Below, piece by piece: positions 4,067 through 21,446 of a DNA stretch of 64,000 bases. The number at the start of each line of letters is the position of its first letter. Position 1 is the stretch's first letter. A program made the translations under genes and the position numbers. This DNA comes from Vulcanimicrobiota bacterium (GTDB lineage Bacteria; Vulcanimicrobiota; Vulcanimicrobiia; Vulcanimicrobiales; Vulcanimicrobiaceae), in contig JAFAXS010000133.1 of assembly GCA_019240755.1 (NCBI GenBank), forward strand, positions 201 to 64,200. Direction: 5' to 3'. Under the pieces are notes generated by a model. It saw nothing but the letters and a program-made list of their open reading frames with translations, was not told the DNA's origin and ran no database searches.

Positions 4067-5041
4067 CTACCAGGAAATAACGATTTTACCGTCGCCCGGC
4101 GGCGCGCCGCCTTGAATGTGCTTCACGTGGCCGGCGTGCTTCTCAACGAACGACGATCCGCCGCCGCCGCCGCCGCCGGAGCCGTCGGTGAAGCTGGGAC
4201 CGAAATACGACCAAGCGCCGGAGCCGCCGCCGCCGCCGCCGTACCATCCTCCGCCACCACCGCCCCCAGCGCCACCAATGGTGCTCCCGCCTAAACTAGG
4301 CTGACCGCCGAAATGGAATTTACCGGGACGTCCGGCCCCACCGGGACCTTGTCCGCACTCTCGGCACGGCGCCGACGTGCGCTGCGCGTCGTGACCACAC
4401 GAATTTTGCCAACAGCCGCCCGCGCCGCCGGAACCGCCGGCGGTCTGCGTACCGCCGCCACCGCCGCCGCCATCGCCGTAGAAACCGCCCCAGCCGCCTG
4501 CGGCCCCGGTGGTGCCTCCGCCCGCGCCGCCATTACCGGGGCCTCCCGAGTTCAGTGACACGGAGCCCCCGCCACCGCCGCCGCCGGCCACAACGACCCG
4601 ATCCTTCAGATTGCTGCCGCCCTGGCGCACGTCGGACTCGCCGCCGCCGTTGAAATAGCCGAAGCTACTGCCCTTCCCGCGTGCTCCACCGTTCCAACCG
4701 TTGTGTCCGCCGACGTAGACGTACAGCGTCTCCGACGGCGTCACGGCAATCGTCGCGCGCACGAAGCCGCCGTTTCCGCCAATGCCCGAACCGTAACAGT
4801 ACGTGCTGTTCGTGGTCACGCAGCTGGCGCCGCTTGCACCCTCGGCGACAACCATCACCTTCGTAATGCCGGCGGGCACTTCCAAGGTTTGAGCGGCTCC
4901 CGTGAAGTGGAAGACGTGCTTATGCGCCGGCGGATGTATGCTCTGCGGCACGCCGGCCACGCGGGGTGCCGAGAGGTACCCTCCGCCGCAGCCCGTCATT
5001 AGCACCACGAAACTCGCGCCGGCCAAAATCCTCAGCAACAT
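4067..5041 (-). CDS. Glycine-rich-domain lipoprotein (bacterial homologue of the Gly_rich / ALK-LTK GRD-type domain)
   Basis: ATG 5041 preceded by GGAGGA. Lipobox LMTGC. Pattern FHFTGAAQTLEVPAGITKVMVVAEGASG..TLYVYVGG..GG.SDVR...L.DRVVVAGGGGGGG, plus four runs of 6-7 Gly. Confidence 0.8.
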   Translation of the reverse strand: MLLRILAGASFVVLMTGCGGGYLSAPRVAGVPQSIHPPAHKHVFHFTGAAQTLEVPAGITKVMVVAEGASGASCVTTNSTYCYGSGIGGNGGFVRATIAVTPSETLYVYVGGHNGWNGGARGKGSSFGYFNGGGESDVRQGGSNLKDRVVVAGGGGGGGSVSLNSGGPGNGGAGGGTTGAAGGWGGFYGDGGGGGGGTQTAGGSGGAGGCWQNSCGHDAQRTSAPCRECGQGPGGAGRPGKFHFGGQPSLGGSTIGGAGGGGGGGWYGGGGGGSGAWSYFGPSFTDGSGGGGGGGSSFVEKHAGHVKHIQGGAPPGDGKIVISW

Positions 5042-5148
5042 GGGGTCCTCCGAACCGACAAAACGTCGAGCGTAGGGAACAACCGGAGCGTGGTGGGTAC
5101 TTTGACGCGAGACTTGCGAACGCCCACCTGCGGCGCGCCGTTTGGTAG

Positions 5149-5220
5149 TGGGCCTGGTAGGATTCGAACCTACGCGCAACCAGTTATGAGCCGGCCGCTC
5201 TACCGCTGAGCTACAGGCCC
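5149..5220 (-). tRNA. tRNA with CAU anticodon (elongator Met, or Ile2 if lysidine-modified); CCA not encoded
   Basis: Acceptor GGGCCTG/CAGGCCC, D arm GCTC-AGCGGTA-GAGC, anticodon stem GCCGG/CTGGT with loop CTCATAA, T arm GTAGG-TTCGAAT-CCTAC, discriminator A. It lacks the three G-C pairs of initiator tRNA. Confidence 0.85.
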
Positions 5221-6293
5221 CTGCAGAACGCTTCGTAATCGCGTTCGACTTGCTTGGCGTAGACGCTTGCAAACTGCGCCATCGCGTTCTCGTAAACGTC
5301 TCCCGCACCGAGATATGCCGCAATCGCCTGCGGATTGCCGGTGCGCGCGTGCGCGCGCGCCAGCACGGCGCCGCAGCGCCCGGCAAAATCGACGAGCTGC
5401 GGCGCGTCGATCCGTTCCACGTCGAGGCCGGACTTTGCGTCCCGCAGTTGACGCACGTAAAAATCGCGCTCGCCTTCGCTCGTCCATCCCACGAAGAGAT
5501 CCGTCGCCGCCTGCATCAGACGCTGACCGGCGATCGCGCGCTGGCCGTGATTCGCAAACAGCGATGGATGCAGGTACCGCTCCAGCACCGATGCCTGCGC
5601 CTGTTTGATCTGGAGGTAGAGACTCTCGCCCTCGCGAGCTTCGAAGTGCGCGACGACGGTAAGCAAACCGACGCTGCCGACGCCGACGGGATGCTCGAAA
5701 AAATCCATGGGCTGGTAGCGGTCGAGCAATATTCTCACGTGTGGTAACAGCGTCTCGCGGTACTTGTGGATCGTATTGCGGGCGACGTCCTCGTGCTCTT
5801 GCGTCGGCTTAACATGCGTCGCGTACTGCGGCGGCGTGAGCTCGCGCGCGAGCATACCGCGGACGTCCACGCGCGAATACCAAATCTGGAGCGGCGAATA
5901 CGCGGCCAGCTCGCGCATGTGCGTGCGATAGCTCGCGACCGCCTGATACGCCGCCTCTTCGCCGACGCGCTTGCCGAAGGAGCGCGCCGATGCGGCCAGC
6001 GGCGCGCTCGCGCACAGACGGGCGACGTCCCATTCCCACGGGCCGGGCAACGTTTCGTCAAAATCGTTGATGTCGAACGTCAGATTGCGTTCTGGCGTCG
6101 CGTATCCGCCGAAGTTCAGCAGATGCGCGTCTCCGCCGAGTTGCACGCGCAAACCGGTGACGGGCCAACTCGCGAGATCCGCGGCCATCAGCGCGGCGCC
6201 GCCGCGATAGAAGGCGAACGGATTAGCGCTCATGCGACGATGGCGCTCGGGCAACAGCTCGGGAATTCGTCCGGTCTCCGTTTCGTGCAGCAA
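5211..6293 (-). CDS. DUF2252-family protein
   Basis: ..MSANPFAFYRGGAALMAADL..LGGDAHLLNFGGY.. is characteristic of DUF2252. TTG start as given by the track. The 3' end overlaps the tRNA 5' end by about 10 nt. Confidence 0.7.
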   Translation of the reverse strand: MLHETETGRIPELLPERHRRMSANPFAFYRGGAALMAADLASWPVTGLRVQLGGDAHLLNFGGYATPERNLTFDINDFDETLPGPWEWDVARLCASAPLAASARSFGKRVGEEAAYQAVASYRTHMRELAAYSPLQIWYSRVDVRGMLARELTPPQYATHVKPTQEHEDVARNTIHKYRETLLPHVRILLDRYQPMDFFEHPVGVGSVGLLTVVAHFEAREGESLYLQIKQAQASVLERYLHPSLFANHGQRAIAGQRLMQAATDLFVGWTSEGERDFYVRQLRDAKSGLDVERIDAPQLVDFAGRCGAVLARAHARTGNPQAIAAYLGAGDVYENAMAQFASVYAKQVERDYEAFCRGL

Positions 6294-6388
6294 GGCGACG
6301 GGGTCGAAACGATCCCGCGCCGGCTTCCAGCCCGCGAGCGTGCTGCGAGGTGCGGTCTTTCGAAGATTCTTCGACGCGTCCGGCGTCC

Positions 6389-8142
<1,754 letters not shown>

Positions 8143-8150
<8 letters not shown>

Positions 8151-8961
8151 AGAAGCGCGCAATACGCCGGGGCGCGGTGTAACTCCGCTGCCGGAGGCGG
8201 GTCCCTACGAGTCGGTCGCGCAGGAGCTGCGGGATTCGCCGTTTGCAGCAATCCGCTATCTCGAAGAAACAACCAGCACGAACGACGACGCCGCGGCTCT
8301 ATTGCCCGACGAGCGTTATGGCGGGCTCACGATCGTTGCAGAATATCAGCGACGCGGCGCCGGGCGGAAGCGGCGGCGCTGGAATGCACCGGCGGGATCG
8401 GCATTGCTCTGCACGACCATTCTGCCACGATCCTTCGCCGCCGACCGGCTGTGGCTCGCACCGTACTGGGCGGCGCTCGCCGTGCGCGGCGCGCTTGCCG
8501 AGTGCGGCATCCATACGCTGCTGCAGTGGCCCAACGACGTGTTGTTGTCGGAACGGAAGCTCGCGGGAATACTCTGCATTTCGAGCATTGCAGGCGCCGC
8601 CGCGCGCGTTGCCTGCGGCGCCGGCATCAATGTCCATCGCTTCACCGGCGCGCCGGAGCTCATTGCGCCGCCGCCCGCATTTTGTGACGATGCCGCGGCG
8701 GTCGAACGGGGCACGTTGCTGCGCACGCTGTTGCGGCGGTACGAAACGTCACTAGGGACGCTGGACAATCCCGACGCTATCGTCGGGCTTTGGGATGAAG
8801 CCGCTCAGCTTCCCGGCCGGCGCTACCGCATCGCGCCCGATACCGGTGCAGCGTTTGAGGCCACGGCGCTCGGGCTGGCGCCGGGCGGCGGCCTGCGCGT
8901 GCGGCGGGCGGGACGAGCACCCGAGGTAGTGTCGCTCGCCGACGTTCGAGTCGAACGTTAA
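8143..8961 (+). CDS. birA: Biotin-[acetyl-CoA-carboxylase] ligase (class I, no HTH)
   Basis: ETTSTNDD.., biotin-binding loop QRRGAGRKRRRWNAPAGSAL, LQWPNDVLL. No ATG/GTG/TTG lies downstream of ATG 8143, so the start is 8143 or earlier. Confidence 0.8.
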
Positions 8962-16481: not shown

Positions 16482-17225
16482 TCAGGATACACCGGCGGGC
16501 TGCAAAAGTATGCGTCCCACGTCGCCGATCGAGCCACAGGTTGCGTCGGGAGGTTGAGCGCCGGGCGGCAGCCGCTCGTCCCGCACGTTGAGCCAGATCG
16601 TAAAAAGGCCCGCGTCGAGGGCGCCGCGCACGTCGCGCTCGTAGCGGTCTCCGACCATCGCCGCATGCGACGGACTCGTGCCGAGCGCGCGACAGGCATG
16701 CGCGAAGAGCAGGGGATCGGGTTTCACCATCCCGACCTCGTCGGCGAGAAAGATGGCATCGAAAAGCTCCGTCAGGCGCAGCAGCGCGATCTTTTCCCGG
16801 TGCGTTTCCGAAAAGCCGTTGGTGAGGATGCCCAGCTTGACGCCGCGCTCCCGCAGCTCGCGCAGCAGTTCGACGGCGCCGGGAAAGACCGTATAATATT
16901 TCGCGCGATACGCATGATAGCGGGCAGCGCTGCGCTTCGCAAGGTCCGGGACCTCGCCTGCGCCGACACTGTCCAACGCGGCCTGCCATAGCGTCGCGCG
17001 CAGATTCGCCAGCTTCGCCTTCAAATCGCTTCCGGCGAGTCGTTCCCAAAAGCCCTCCGCCTGCGCGATGTACGCATCCTTGAGTTCGAGGGCGTCTATG
17101 CCATGCTCGGCAGCGATCTCTCGCGCCACCTCGTGCGCGGCGCTCTGATTTGCGAAGGTGTCGTCGTGCAGGGTGTCGTCGAGGTCGAAAAGGATGGCGT
17201 CAAGACGGCGAAACGGCAAGCTCAT
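16482..17225 (-). CDS. HAD-superfamily hydrolase
   Basis: Motif [32 protein letters not shown] 17225 overlaps the upstream stop (ATGA). Confidence 0.8.
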
Positions 17226-18022
17226 CGAACGGCGTGCATGCGTTGCTGAAAATACTGCCAACCTTCCGGAGATATTCTCACGGAGCCGGAAAAAGGCGTC
17301 GAAAACTCCGCAATCACCACAAAGAGCAATCCGATGAGACCGACCAAGATTGCGGTCATCAGCAGCTGAGCCGGACGGTTTTCGACACCGAAGATGTAGC
17401 AGAAGGCGACCATCGCCAAGGCCCCGCAGACCAAGGCAAACCACAACACTGCAGGAACCGCGGGAACGGCCTGAACCAGCCGCTGCCGGCGAGCGTCGAA
17501 GAGCCGTTGCATATCGGCAATTGCGGCTTGCTGCGCGGCCAACTCCTTCCAATTCCGCGGTGAATACGCGTCGACGCGATACGCCGCATCCTCGAGCTGG
17601 CTCGCCGCCGCCCACGAGATCCGCTGTCCCGCGGCCATCGCCGGCCATTCCTGCATCACGACGATCCGCGCGTAACGCGCCAGATCGCTTCGAATTCGAG
17701 AGCGGCTGGCACCGGTGTAACCATCCACCGCGTGATACAGGTCGGCGGTCGCGTCAACTTCGTTTTCGACGTTGGAGACGGAGGCGTCGTATTTCTGCCA
17801 GACGACGACGACAACGAAGCCGAGCACCACCGCGTAGAGCACGCCGACCGCCGAGAAGAGATATCCCGCGACGTCGTTGTGGCGACGCAAGACGTCGCTG
17901 CGCAGCCGTTGCTGCAAAACGAAGTGGAGCGCCACGCAGAACGCGACGGCGAGGAATATGAAGAAGACCTCGAGCAACGCTTCGGGCAGGCTGACGATCG
18001 TTCGGCTTACGAACTCTGCCAA
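17222..18022 (-). CDS. Four-TM membrane protein, DUF4239-like
   Basis: Two N-terminal and two C-terminal hydrophobic helices flank a soluble central region. Family assignment is from memory of the architecture only. TTG start as given by the track. Confidence 0.55.
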   Translation of the reverse strand: MAEFVSRTIVSLPEALLEVFFIFLAVAFCVALHFVLQQRLRSDVLRRHNDVAGYLFSAVGVLYAVVLGFVVVVVWQKYDASVSNVENEVDATADLYHAVDGYTGASRSRIRSDLARYARIVVMQEWPAMAAGQRISWAAASQLEDAAYRVDAYSPRNWKELAAQQAAIADMQRLFDARRQRLVQAVPAVPAVLWFALVCGALAMVAFCYIFGVENRPAQLLMTAILVGLIGLLFVVIAEFSTPFSGSVRISPEGWQYFQQRMHAVR

Positions 18023-18027
18023 AGACT

Positions 18028-18307
18028 AGGGAACCTCTGAAGAAGTCGCTGCACCGATCGCAACGAGCAGTTTCGGCACAGCTCTAGGCGAAGCCGAGGG
18101 AGCATACTCGCGGAGTCTGTGACCGAGGCTGCAACAACGAGACGTGCCGAAAATGCCGTTGCCCAAAGGGTTTGACCACAAAGGCGGCGCCTGCGTCGTC
18201 GCCGACTCCGTCGAATACCGCTGCGGGTATGCTCCGTCGCCGTCTCCTAGCACTCGCCGCCTTTGTGGTTCAAACGATCGGTACATGGACTTCTTCAGAG
18301 GTTCCCT
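18028..18307. ncRNA. Candidate structured RNA element (three-way junction closed by a perfect 20-bp helix); strand undetermined
   Basis: No credible ORF. Hand-paired helices: 18028-18047/18288-18307 (20/20), 18053-18060/18275-18282, 18067-18079/18144-18156, 18170-18189/18255-18275 (one bulge). In addition 18099-18113 is complementary to 18221-18235. Confidence 0.4.
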
Positions 18308-18318
18308 CGATCCGCCGG

Positions 18319-20364
18319 CTAGTTACTGACCAGCTCGGCCAACGCCTTATCGAAAATCTTCGGAGCCTTGCCGCCGAAAAGAATGGACTCGTTGCCGCCG
18401 ATCTGCTTGCGTAAAGCGATCAGTTCGTCGCGCAGTGCCGCCGCCTTTTCGAACTCCAGATTCGCCGCGGCATTGCGCATGGCACGCTCCAAGTCCCGCG
18501 CCATGTTGAGCGCGGCATCGCGCGGCAACTTGTCGAACTTTAGCTTCGCCGTGTTCTCTTCCGTCGCGCCGACCATGCTCAAGATGTCGTGAATCTGCTT
18601 GCGCACCGATTTGGGTTCGATCCCGTGCTCGCGATTATATGCGACCTGCATGTCGCGGCGCCGGCGCGTTTCGCCGATCGCACGCGCCATCGACTCGGTC
18701 ACCACGTCGGCGTACATGATAACCTTTCCCTCTACGTTGCGCGAAGCGCGCCCGATCGTCTGGATCAACGACGTGCCGCTTCGGAGGTACCCCTCTTTAT
18801 CGGCGTCGAGGATCCCCACCAAGGATACCTCGGGCAGGTCGAGACCTTCCCGCAGCAGATTGATGCCGACGAGCACGTCGAAGACGCCGGCCCGCAGGTC
18901 GCGCAGGATCGCCACCCGCTCGAGCGTGTCCACTTCGCTGTGCAAGTATCGCACCCTCAGACCGTTCTCGAGCAGATAGTCGGTAAGGTCCTCGGCCATC
19001 TTTTTGGTAAGCGTCGTTACCAAGACGCGTTCCCGGCGCGCGGCGCGTTGCGCGATCTCTTCCATGAGATCGTCCACTTGATTGCGCGTCGGCCGCACCT
19101 CCACCTCGGGATCCACCAATCCCGTGGGCCGAATGATCATCTCGACGACTTGACTGCTCCGGCCGGTCTCGTACGTGCCCGGCGTCGCCGAAACGTAGAC
19201 GACCTGCGAGACGTGCTCGTCGAATTCGGCGTACGTCAGCGGCCGATTGTCGAGCGCGCTCGGCAAACGGAAGCCGTGCTCCACCAAAACCTCTTTGCGC
19301 GAGCGATCGCCGGCGTACATGCCATGCACTTGCGGCAGCGTGACGTGCGACTCGTCAACGAATAGCAGCCAGTCCTTCGGAAAGAAGTCGATCAGGCACC
19401 AGGGCGTCGAGCCGGGCTCGCGACCGGTGAGGTGACGCGAGTAGTTTTCGATTCCGTTACAGTACCCGACCTCGCGTAACATGTCGAGATCGTAACGGGT
19501 GCGCATCTCGAGACGCTGCGCCTCGAGCAGCTTGCCATGACCTCGAAAATAGACGAGTCGCTCTTCGAGCTCCTCTTCGATCGACACGATCGCCCGGCGC
19601 AGCTTCTCTTCCGGCGTGATGAAGTGCTTGGCGGGGAAGATCAGCAGCTGATCCTTGCGCTCCAGATACTCTCCGGTGAGCATGTTGACGACGTCGATAG
19701 ACTCGATTTCGTCGCCGAAAAACGAGATGCGATGGACGAGCTCTTCGTCCACGCCCACGAATTCCAGCGTATCGCCCCGCACCCGGAAGGTGCCGCGAAC
19801 GAGGTTGAGATCGTTGCGGCGATACTGCATGTCCACGAGCTTGCGCAGCAGCACGTCGCGGTCCAGCGCCTCCCCGGGCCGAACCTTCACGGACATCTCG
19901 ACGTAATCCGAGGGCGACCCCAAGCCGAAGATGCACGAGACCGAGGCGACGATGATCGTATCCCGGCGCGTCAGGAGCGACTGCGTGGCGGAGTGGCGCA
20001 GGCGCTCGATCTCGTCGTTGATCGAGCTGTCCTTCTCGATGTAGGTATCGGTCGACGGCACGTACGCCTCGGGCTGGTAGTAATCGAAATACGAGACGAA
20101 ATACTCGACCGCGTTGCGCGGAAAGAACTCGCGGAATTCGGCGCAGAGCTGTGCGGCGAGCGTCTTGTTATGACAGAGCACCAGCGTCGGCTTGCGCACC
20201 AACTCGATCGTCCGCGCCATGGCCATCGTCTTGCCGCTCCCGGTGACGCCGAGCAACGTCTGCGCGCGCTCGCCCCGCAGCACGCCGTCGGCCAATGCCT
20301 GCGTAGCTTTAGGCTGGTCGCCGGCAAGCGCGAAGGGACTGACCAAGGTGAACTCTTGGGGCAC
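18319..20364 (-). CDS. uvrB: Excinuclease ABC subunit B
   Basis: GDQPKA.., helicase motif [10 protein letters not shown]-terminal UVR domain ([17 protein letters not shown]). Start trimmed to GTG 20364, behind AAGGAAGG. Confidence 0.95.
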
Positions 20365-20429
20365 GACCTTCCTTATAAACCATCCCCGAGGGCGGAACGA
20401 TTCAGGGCGCGAACTAGCCCGCGACTGCC

Positions 20430-21446
20430 GTGACACACCCTCCCTTGCTATTCTGCGGGAACTCGAATCCGCAGTTGGCCGAAGAGATCGCCAAACGCCT
20501 GCGACTGCACGTGGGCAAGGCGCTCGTTTCCGAATTCAAAAACGAAGAGACGCGCGTGGAGATACGCGAGAACGTCCGCGGGGCCGAGGTCTTCGTGTTG
20601 CAGTCAATCTGCAAAGCATCCAACGGAAAGGGCGTCAACGACGCCGTGATGGAGCTGCTGCTGATGATCGACGCGCTGAGGCGGGCGTCGGCTGCGAGGA
20701 TCACCGCCGTCATCCCCTACTACGGCTACGCGAAGCAAGATAAGAAGACTAAGGGACGCGAGCCGATCTCCGCCAAGGTGGTCGCGAATTTGCTGAAGGT
20801 CACGGGGGCGCGCCGGATCGTAACGATGGACCTCCATGCAGCGCAGATCCAGGGCTTCTTCGACATCCCCGTGGACAACTTGATGGCAATGCCCGTGCTC
20901 TGCAACTATCTAAAAAAGGAAGGGCTCTGCGACGACAAGATCGTCGTGGTATCGCCCGACGCCGGCGGCGTGCATCGCGCGGAGCTCTTCGCGAAGTGGC
21001 TCAACAGCTCGCTCGCGATCGCGTTCAAGCGACGCCCCGAGCCGGACGTCTCGGAAGTAACCGACATTGTCGGCGACGTTCACGACAGGGTAGCGGTCAT
21101 CGTAGACGACATGATTTCGACCGGCGGAACGCTTGCCAAGGCCGCGGAGGCAATTAAGGCGCGCGGAGCCACGCAGGTGTATACGGTCGCGACCCACGGA
21201 ATATTTGCGGGCGATGCGGTGCGGGTGCTGGAAGCGTCCGAAATCGAAAAAGTACTCTTTACCAACACGATACCGTTCCAGAACGGCGTCACGCATCCGA
21301 AGTTCGTGCAGCTCTCCATCGCGCAGACCTTCGCCGATGCGATCAATCGCATTACGACCAATCGCTCCGTTTCCGAGCTCTTCGAAGGCGAGGATGCGAT
21401 CAACACCATGCTGAGCGCGCCGACCGAGCCGCTCGCGCCAGTCTAA
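20430..21446 (+). CDS. prs: Ribose-phosphate pyrophosphokinase
   Basis: ..[15 protein letters not shown].., PRPP loop [14 protein letters not shown]. Confidence 0.95.

Follow-up and report, generated by a model that had tools for sequence, protein, structure and literature searches.

What is the 296-bp spacer that separates uvrB from a DUF4239-like gene in the uvrB-DUF4239-HAD-uvrA-ligA gene string of a Vulcanimicrobiota bacterium, and does its elaborate fold serve the host or the DNA element that carries it? We examined the spacer within a stretch of 64,000 nucleotides of contig JAFAXS010000133.1 (hereafter the window, to which all unprefixed positions refer). An earlier note on this DNA proposed that the spacer is a free-standing structured RNA gene of the uvr cluster, without a credible open reading frame (ORF) and transcribed from the plus strand, antisense to both neighbors. 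[quoted passage not shown] This MITE has no coding capacity, is dispersed, and has terminal inverted repeats and a target-site duplication of a fixed 4 bp. The family is previously undescribed, occurs in an uncultivated phylum, and is absent from Rfam and from the literature that we searched.

Results

A dispersed family with IS5-type ends

One genome per species was scanned with the inner 18-mer of the terminal repeat, and all copy counts given here are lower bounds. The 18-mer occurred in more than 116 stretches among the matches listed, mostly in metagenome-assembled genomes (MAGs) of Eremiobacterota, often as plus/minus pairs and at several loci per genome; the hosts named include Cybelea, Baltobacteraceae, Rubrimentiphilum and "Vulcanimicrobiota". 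When mismatches were allowed, the modal end-to-end distance of paired repeats was exactly 280 bp, as in the window element. The interiors in genome contigs are 70-87% identical to the window copy and occur in both orientations, and metagenome contigs hold further copies that are up to 90% identical to it. Size variants of about 185-200 bp and about 303-387 bp are also present. A covariance model built from 33 full-length copies, which picks up copies with degraded ends as well, found at least 69 copies at 64 or more distinct sites, with a lower bound of 3-5 or more copies per MAG. Pairs of copies at different sites within a genome share 98.2%, 94% and 93% identity, and several subfamilies that are about 70% alike coexist within one genome. 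This is the pattern that repeated bursts of transposition leave. Elsewhere, the copies show no association with repair genes. Viral contigs yielded no copy of the element, and plasmids yielded no similarity either to the window element or to its betaproteobacterial counterpart described below.

The boundaries of the copies are those of a transposon. The family flanks have the consensus YTA-...-TAR, with YTAR on both sides, and a register test places the duplication at 4 bp and the element proper between GGAACC and GGTTCC. Exact 4-bp duplications flank 12 of 52 copies, compared to 4.4 in shuffles (p<1e-4). Five of these 12 are non-palindromic (TCAA, TTTA twice, CTGG and CTAA) and thus cannot be extensions of the inverted repeats. 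IS5 likewise duplicates the 4-bp sequence 5'-YTAR-3' (PMC5009759). In the window, the core of the element spans 18030-18305 (276 bp). Derivation from IS630/Tc1-mariner elements, with a 2-bp TA duplication, was considered and rejected: neither TCAA nor CTGG has a TA in register, a register of 4 bp is the better fit, and the ends match elements annotated as IS5.

The IS5 matches come from a BLAST search of annotated plasmids with the terminal palindrome; they are weak (E = 1-5) and coincide with the ends of IS5-family elements. On Achromobacter plasmid pA81, the match belongs to an element of about 1.2 kb (L128:1822-3023), bounded as TTAA-GGAAGGTCTGAACAAG...CTTGTTCAGAGGTTCC-TTAA and annotated with an IS5-family transposase, while in pCAR1 (L129) the terminal repeat adjoins ISPre1. 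On a metagenome contig (L140), the N-terminus of an IS5-type transposase is preceded, 49 nt upstream, by the exact 19-mer GGAACCTCTGAAGAAGTCC. This N-terminus shares 65% identity with the transposases of the two plasmids, and all of its relatives are fragments of IS5/IS1182 transposases (PF05598-type). On a further contig (L098), a similar transposase fragment adjoins the terminal repeat. A tblastn search with the two IS5 transposases matched only L098 and L140, which are of unknown or other phyla, and when the L140 fragment served as the query of a protein search, all matches were partial IS5/IS1182 transposases, none of them labelled Eremiobacterota. Singleton terminal repeats, and pairs of repeats 0.6-4 kb apart, enclosed no transposase. 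The window element shares with the IS5 group (IS5, ISPre1 and the pA81 element) the terminal-repeat type GGAACCTCTGAA(G/C)AAGTCC and the 4-bp YTAR duplication. It differs from these elements in having no transposase gene, in its length (276 bp compared to about 1.2 kb), and in an interior that is unrelated to the IS5-group interiors examined and consists of two covarying palindromes.

Several arrangements of the repeats were observed along the way. A single locus contains two family copies, no more than 1-2 kb apart, in L053 (1047-1326 and 2200-2473) and in L003 (1343-1614 and 3363-3642); in both, the ends of the second copy are too degraded for the exact-word scan. In L025 (4902-6073), a 190-bp family MITE and an inverted solo terminal repeat 1.17 kb apart bracket a 369-codon ORF (4979-6088), which could be a composite, mobilizable unit. 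Four contig ends of one Chloroflexi MAG (L014, L015, L056 and L101) share 93-96 nt that start with an identical terminal repeat, probably a multi-copy, full-length insertion sequence that broke the assembly.

The insertion site is empty in relatives

The DUF4239 protein of the window was found residue for residue on six contigs, all of which carry the element. Their spacers are identical to that of the window, except for one base in L117. The junction is compact in four more distant relatives: the DUF4239 gene starts 14 nt after the uvrB stop codon where the DUF4239 protein is 86% identical (L123/L124) and 2 nt after it at 74% identity (L125), and the two genes overlap by 8 nt in both relatives at 70% identity (L126 and L127). 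None of these four junctions contains a trace of the element. Subtracting the core and one copy of the duplication from the window leaves TAG-CCGGCGGATCTAGTCT-TTG, a 16-nt spacer that is comparable to the 14 nt of L123. Because the relatives' junctions are empty, the element is an insertion into a compact gene string and not an ancestral part of it.

The proposal of a novel RNA gene specific to this locus therefore did not survive comparison, since the element is multi-copy and dispersed, has IS5-type ends and target duplications, and is missing from the orthologous sites. The earlier note had itself named many copies elsewhere, together with target-site duplications, as the pattern that would make the element a MITE, and this is the pattern that we found.

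Two of the relatives have further features in this neighborhood. L127, although its uvrB-DUF4239 junction is empty, has a 209-bp family member (1749-1957) between the divergent prs and uvrB genes and hence an independent insertion into the same conserved neighborhood. In L126, uvrA (5962-8813) is called as two ORFs of 275 and more than 691 amino acids, and an extra 117-amino-acid ORF (4835-5188) lies between the DUF4239 and HAD genes; these may reflect a frameshift, a pseudogene or an assembly error.

The fold is real, and the pattern of changes points to DNA

The secondary structure of the spacer is real and far beyond chance. All of the pairings that had been found by hand were recovered, namely the outer helices P1 and P1b, the two inner helices P2 and P3, and the complementarity between the apices of P2 and P3. 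In P1, all 20 positions of 18028-18047 pair with 18288-18307, and the 20-mer AGGGAACCTCTGAAGAAGTC that forms it occurs exactly twice in the 64 kb (18028-18047, plus strand; 18288-18307, minus strand), compared to an expectation of 0 from 100 shuffles. A repeat search merged P1 and P1b into a pair of 33-nt arms (18028-18060 with 18275-18307) that are 91% complementary, and recovered P2 as 18067-18084 with 18139-18156, P3 as 18175-18194 with 18250-18269, and the apical complementarity as 18084-18111 with 18223-18250. The minimum free energy (MFE) is -155.9 kcal/mol for the plus strand (z = -9.2) and -163.1 kcal/mol for the minus strand (z = -10.4); none of 200 shuffled sequences was as stable. 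The MFE folds of both strands are the same three-way junction, as had been proposed, and a consensus fold of 33 copies agrees (see below). Rfam returned nothing meaningful for the window region even at permissive thresholds (E up to 10), which bears out the impression that no known RNA family is present.

The same features can be read as the parts of a transposon (Table 1). P1 is formed by the two terminal inverted repeats, which would be the transposase-binding ends. P2 and P3 are internal palindromes and roughly inverted copies of each other, which makes the element a pseudo-dimer; aligned with its own reverse complement, the whole element is 67% identical.

The structure is maintained by compensatory change, here among paralogous copies, and the folded layout is conserved to an unusual degree. 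RNAalifold predicted the three-way junction with 79 pairs from the 33-copy alignment. Standard pairs occupy 95.9% of the cells, and 39 of the 79 pairs have changed on both sides. No shuffle out of 500 reached any of five pairing measures, and pairing falls to 36-46% when partners are slid by 1-3 columns. The nature of the exceptions is informative. In the helices of functional RNAs, G·U is normally much better tolerated than A·C. Among 2598 cells in the helices of this family, G·T mismatches (45) and A·C mismatches (39) are equally rare, whichever strand is considered. Because the two are equally rare, the complementarity points to maintenance at the level of DNA, not to selection on an RNA. 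In five closely related pairs of copies, one of them orthologous, paired columns have about 0.4 times the differences of unpaired columns. The new differences at paired positions mostly break pairs, and only 1 of 23 is compensatory.

The apical complementarity is made up of two conserved pairs of boxes, GAGGGAGCATA with TATGCTCCCTC and CTGTGACCGAG with CTCGGTCACAG. A loop-loop contact between P2 and P3, which had been suggested as one explanation, was rejected: the boxes are conserved in sequence, their changes are mostly uncompensated, and covariation gives the contact no support. Because of these uncompensated changes, the boxes behave as inverted sequence motifs and not as a pairing. The choice of the plus strand as the RNA, which rested on two G-T pairs in this region, is not supported in view of the same changes, the balance of G·T and A·C, and the orientation bias of the family, which points to co-transcription with the flanking genes in their sense direction.

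Copies are polarized with respect to transcription

The 3' ends of genes supported by their G+C content at third codon positions lie within a few nucleotides of the CATGGAC end of the element at 21 sites, of the other end at 1 site, and of both ends at 2 sites (64 sites; binomial p = 1e-5). Co-directional (tandem) contexts favor the same polarity by 15:1. The window copy, whose CATGGAC end is 11 nt away from the stop codon of uvrB, is in the usual orientation, so a transcript through the element would be sense to uvrB, opposite to the strand called before. The two copies of the duplication have also decayed unequally. Oriented by transcription, the exit-side 4-mer is still YTAR at 39 of 59 sites, compared to 17 of 59 on the entry side (p = 9e-5), where variants are often NGAG, as in the window (CGAG). 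No sigma-70-like promoter or intrinsic terminator that might explain the polarity was found in either orientation, and sigma-70 rules may not be those of the host phylum.

An ORF without a coding signature

The statement that the spacer has no credible ORF holds in the sense that no coding signature was detected, and fails in that an ORF of 86 codons, beginning with ATG, is present in the spacer. In the window, this ORF starts 32 nt past the stop codon of uvrB, and its end lies 3 nt before the TTG of the DUF4239 gene. The ATG is present at element position 22 in 59 of 64 Eremiobacterota copies, and the frame is open throughout in 41 of 64; among these are several size variants with length differences in multiples of 3. 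A small protein was considered and rejected: the product has no Pfam match, variation is no higher at third codon positions than at the first two, and two control frames are open about as often (16/33 and 13/33, compared to 23/33 for the ORF frame). Intact ORFs are found at 8 of 15 tandem sites versus 64% overall, a frameshifted subfamily occupies the same operon contexts, and the exit-side YTAR is kept regardless of ORF integrity (25/38 versus 14/21). The proteobacterial relatives do not have the feature.

Relatives in other phyla

Elements of 269-329 bp in Beta- and Gammaproteobacteria share the three-way fold (z = -12 and -10) with the window family, and they have the same terminal repeat and four (C/G)AGAT(G/C) motifs. 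A central GCCC-NNN-GGGTTTG is present in the betaproteobacterial relatives, and GCCC-GAA-GGGGCTTT in the gammaproteobacterial one (L012). In other respects, the stem sequences of these elements are unrelated to those of the Eremiobacterota copies. With the Eremiobacterota covariance model, these relatives score 72-117 bits, compared to 30-56 bits for palindromes that consist of the terminal repeats only. Three proteobacterial loci gave nothing meaningful at Rfam gathering thresholds.

Shorter elements were also seen. Proteobacteria and Eremiobacterota contain palindromes of 47-77 bp that consist of a small loop and two IS5-type terminal repeats (L107, L002, L057, L084, L022, L045 and L113); in L107, two nearly identical 57-bp palindromes (7440-7496 and 7621-7677) lie 181 bp apart. 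A Bdellovibrionota MAG (L111:6774-7042) has two MITEs of about 134 bp head to tail, with the same terminal repeat and an unrelated interior.

The locus

The neighbors named in the earlier note were confirmed by the ORF list and Pfam. uvrB (18319-20436, minus strand; stop codon TAG at 18321-18319) encodes UvrB Pfam domains, and the DUF4239/Bestrophin-like gene (17222-18022, minus strand) starts with TTG; the next genes, a HAD hydrolase and then UvrA, are also on the minus strand. On the minus strand of 18020-18047, the TTG start of the DUF4239 gene has two features 5' of it: a GAGG at a distance of 11 nt, placed there by the terminal repeat, and, at 3 nt, the TAG of the CTAG duplication. In the relatives, the corresponding region has no obvious Shine-Dalgarno sequence.

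Table 1. Features of the window element and its borders, listed by position in the window.
Feature	Position	Strand	Remarks
Target-site duplication copy 1, CTAG	18026-18029		Exit side relative to uvrB transcription
86-codon ORF with ATG start, judged non-coding	18026-18286	-	Opens at the conserved ATG and closes at the TAG in the exit duplication
Left terminal inverted repeat GGAACCTCTGAAGAAGTC, 5' arm of P1	18030-18047	+	Hardly varies among 33 copies; IS5-group insertion sequences end in the same 18-19-mer
Conserved internal-loop bases GCTGC, then P1b 5' arm ACCGATCG	18048-18060	+	P1b pairs covary (columns 26-32 with 256-262)
P2, left internal palindrome, a long imperfect hairpin	18060-18162	+	MFE folds; alignment helices 2-5, 16 pairs with compensatory changes
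Box A GAGGGAGCATA, within P2	18096-18106	+	
Box B TCTGTGACCGAG, within P2	18116-18127	+	
Central motif GCCC-AAA-GGG-TTTG, mini-palindrome at the junction	18161-18174	+	Conserved in Eremiobacterota copies
P3, right internal palindrome, roughly P2 inverted	18170-18275	+	MFE folds; alignment helices 7-10, 17 pairs with compensatory changes
Degenerate box B', within P3	18206-18218	+	
Box A' TATGCTCCGTC, within P3	18228-18238	+	
P1b 3' arm CGATCGGT, then conserved internal-loop bases ACATG	18275-18287	+	Minus strand reads the ATG of element position 22
Right terminal inverted repeat, 3' arm of P1	18288-18305	-	In most family members, this end faces the stop codon of the gene upstream
Target-site duplication copy 2, CTCG	18306-18309		3/4 bases match CTAG; ends 9 nt short of the uvrB stop, on its downstream side

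Discussion

We propose that an IS5-group DDE transposase, acting in trans, moved the element by cut-and-paste into a CTAG-like (YTAR) site just past the uvrB stop codon, and that the 4 bp duplicated in this event are seen today as CTAG and CTCG. The insertion would have split a formerly tight uvrB-DUF4239 junction that was probably translationally coupled. The internal palindromes may have been kept because mobile lineages need intrastrand DNA hairpins or cruciforms, which we regard as the likeliest cause of their conservation. Template-switch correction of quasi-palindromes, a mechanism from E. coli, may help to keep the arms complementary. The element would be co-transcribed with uvrB, which would put a very stable fold of about 280 nt into a polycistronic mRNA, with possible effects on mRNA processing and on translation of the DUF4239 gene. 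The element most plausibly acts at the uvrB-DUF4239 locus only as an insertion that separates formerly linked genes and adds this fold to the operon mRNA.

Several observations weigh against this explanation. The 64 kb of the window contain a single copy, its duplication is imperfect, and the nearest empty site, at 86% protein identity, is too diverged for a base-by-base reconstruction of the target. The Eremiobacterota loci examined contain no full-length IS5-group partner with these ends, so we infer, for this phylum, that mobilization occurs in trans. In addition, a plain selfish MITE does not predict the 21:1 orientation bias, the unequal decay of the duplication copies, or the same three-way layout across phyla. 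The last three points justify a minority reading, namely that the element's body is itself functional. The family would then be part of an old, horizontally spread MITE lineage with IS5 ends and a functional three-way-junction body of about 270-280 bp, ranging from Proteobacteria to Eremiobacterota. This body would comprise the terminal-repeat stem, two long hairpins with the four (C/G)AGAT(G/C) motifs, the complementary apical boxes, and the central GCCC-NNN-GGG; its stem sequences would have turned over completely, and it would be fixed in one orientation relative to host transcription. We hold this only tentatively and consider it improbable. If true, the body would be a folded-DNA cofactor that miniature elements require for transposition of the IS5 type, or a co-opted module of intercistronic or 3' untranslated regions.

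A related possibility, which adds to the MITE explanation, is that many transcribed copies, perhaps the window copy among them, have been exapted and are kept in one orientation for action in cis on host mRNA. Such copies could serve as stabilizers of 3' ends or intercistronic regions, as RNase III/E sites, as barriers to Rho loading, as uncouplers of adjacent genes, or as donors of a ribosome-binding site. The polarity of gene ends and tandem contexts, the typical orientation of the window copy, the better retention of YTAR on the exit side, the lower divergence of paired columns in close pairs of copies, and the GAGG that the terminal repeat places upstream of the DUF4239 start all speak for this, yet G·U pairs are not in excess of A·C on either strand, unlike what is usual for selection on RNA folds. 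Moreover, recent differences at paired positions mostly break pairs, and promoter-like and terminator-like sites were not found in either orientation. We therefore regard exaptation as possible but doubtful. A more specific role in operons, in which ribosomes on the 86-codon ORF cross the insertion and thereby couple translation of the DUF4239 gene to that of uvrB, would explain the polarity and fits the position of the frame in the window, the conserved ATG, and size variants that preserve the frame. This is very unlikely given the lack of excess variation at third positions, the openness of the control frames, the occurrence of the frameshifted subfamily in the same operon contexts, the proportion of intact frames at tandem sites, the independence of exit-side YTAR conservation from ORF integrity, and the absence of the ORF from proteobacterial relatives.

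We give hardly any weight to the two explanations that dispense with an IS5-type transposon. The stability of the fold, the covariation among copies, and the lack of a known Rfam family are compatible with the free-standing, plus-strand RNA gene that was proposed for the uvr cluster. Such a gene does not fit with the empty site in four relatives, the dispersal of copies with IS5-type ends and duplications over at least 64 unrelated sites, the lack of an association with repair genes elsewhere, or the absence of promoter-like and terminator-like sites; wobble pairs show no strand asymmetry, and the polarity of the family is sense, not antisense, to the flanking genes. A single-stranded DNA element of the REP/REPIN kind, moved by a tyrosine transposase (Y1/RAYT, IS200/IS605-type) that recognizes hairpins, would account for strictly Watson-Crick upkeep of hairpins without strand asymmetry, for the strong orientation bias, and for the extragenic position. 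It is, in our estimate, just as improbable, because the long terminal inverted repeats are identical to DDE-type IS5 ends, the 4-bp YTAR duplications are consistent, and a 276-bp element of this architecture is unlike REPs of 20-40 nt. Y1 elements are not known to have either long terminal inverted repeats or 4-bp YTAR duplications.

The MITE explanation places the family among several known systems, although literature searches with the terminal-repeat sequence and for Eremiobacterota and transposable elements returned nothing relevant. REP/BIME/REPIN sequences resemble the window family in being dispersed extragenic palindromes that have orientation patterns and are kept as hairpins; they differ in being 20-40 nt long, in having neither terminal repeats nor duplications, and in being tied to RAYT tyrosine transposases. 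The Correia elements of Neisseria and the ERIC/IRU elements of Enterobacteria are MITE-like, lie in transcribed intergenic regions, and form long hairpins through their inverted ends, as does the window family. Both are reported to affect mRNA processing or stability, in some cases in an orientation-dependent manner. They are single hairpins of about 100-155 bp without sequence similarity to the window family, and Correia duplicates TA. MITEs that share only terminal repeats with IS5-family elements were already known (PMC4596501). For example, BrickBuilt, MITE293 and MITE700 of Porphyromonas gingivalis and ATR of Neisseria are, like the window family, short, non-coding, multi-copy and intergenic, with an IS5-family terminal repeat as the sole link to an insertion sequence (type II MITEs) (PMC4596501). 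The window family differs from these in its unrelated sequence and host phylum, its consistent 4-bp YTAR duplications, its conserved three-way junction, and its strong polarity with respect to genes.

Recognition of this family removes a false lead, in that the spacer is not a repair-linked riboregulator. For genome annotation, the family explains oversized intergenic spacers and spurious ORFs of about 86 amino acids in Eremiobacterota MAGs, and its insertion sites are usable as strain markers. The covariation without an RNA wobble signature, the 21:1 polarity and the unequal decay of the duplications bear on whether the structures of MITEs serve the element or the host. For the bacterium itself, the insertion into the uvrB-DUF4239-HAD-uvrA-ligA string may alter the expression of the genes downstream.

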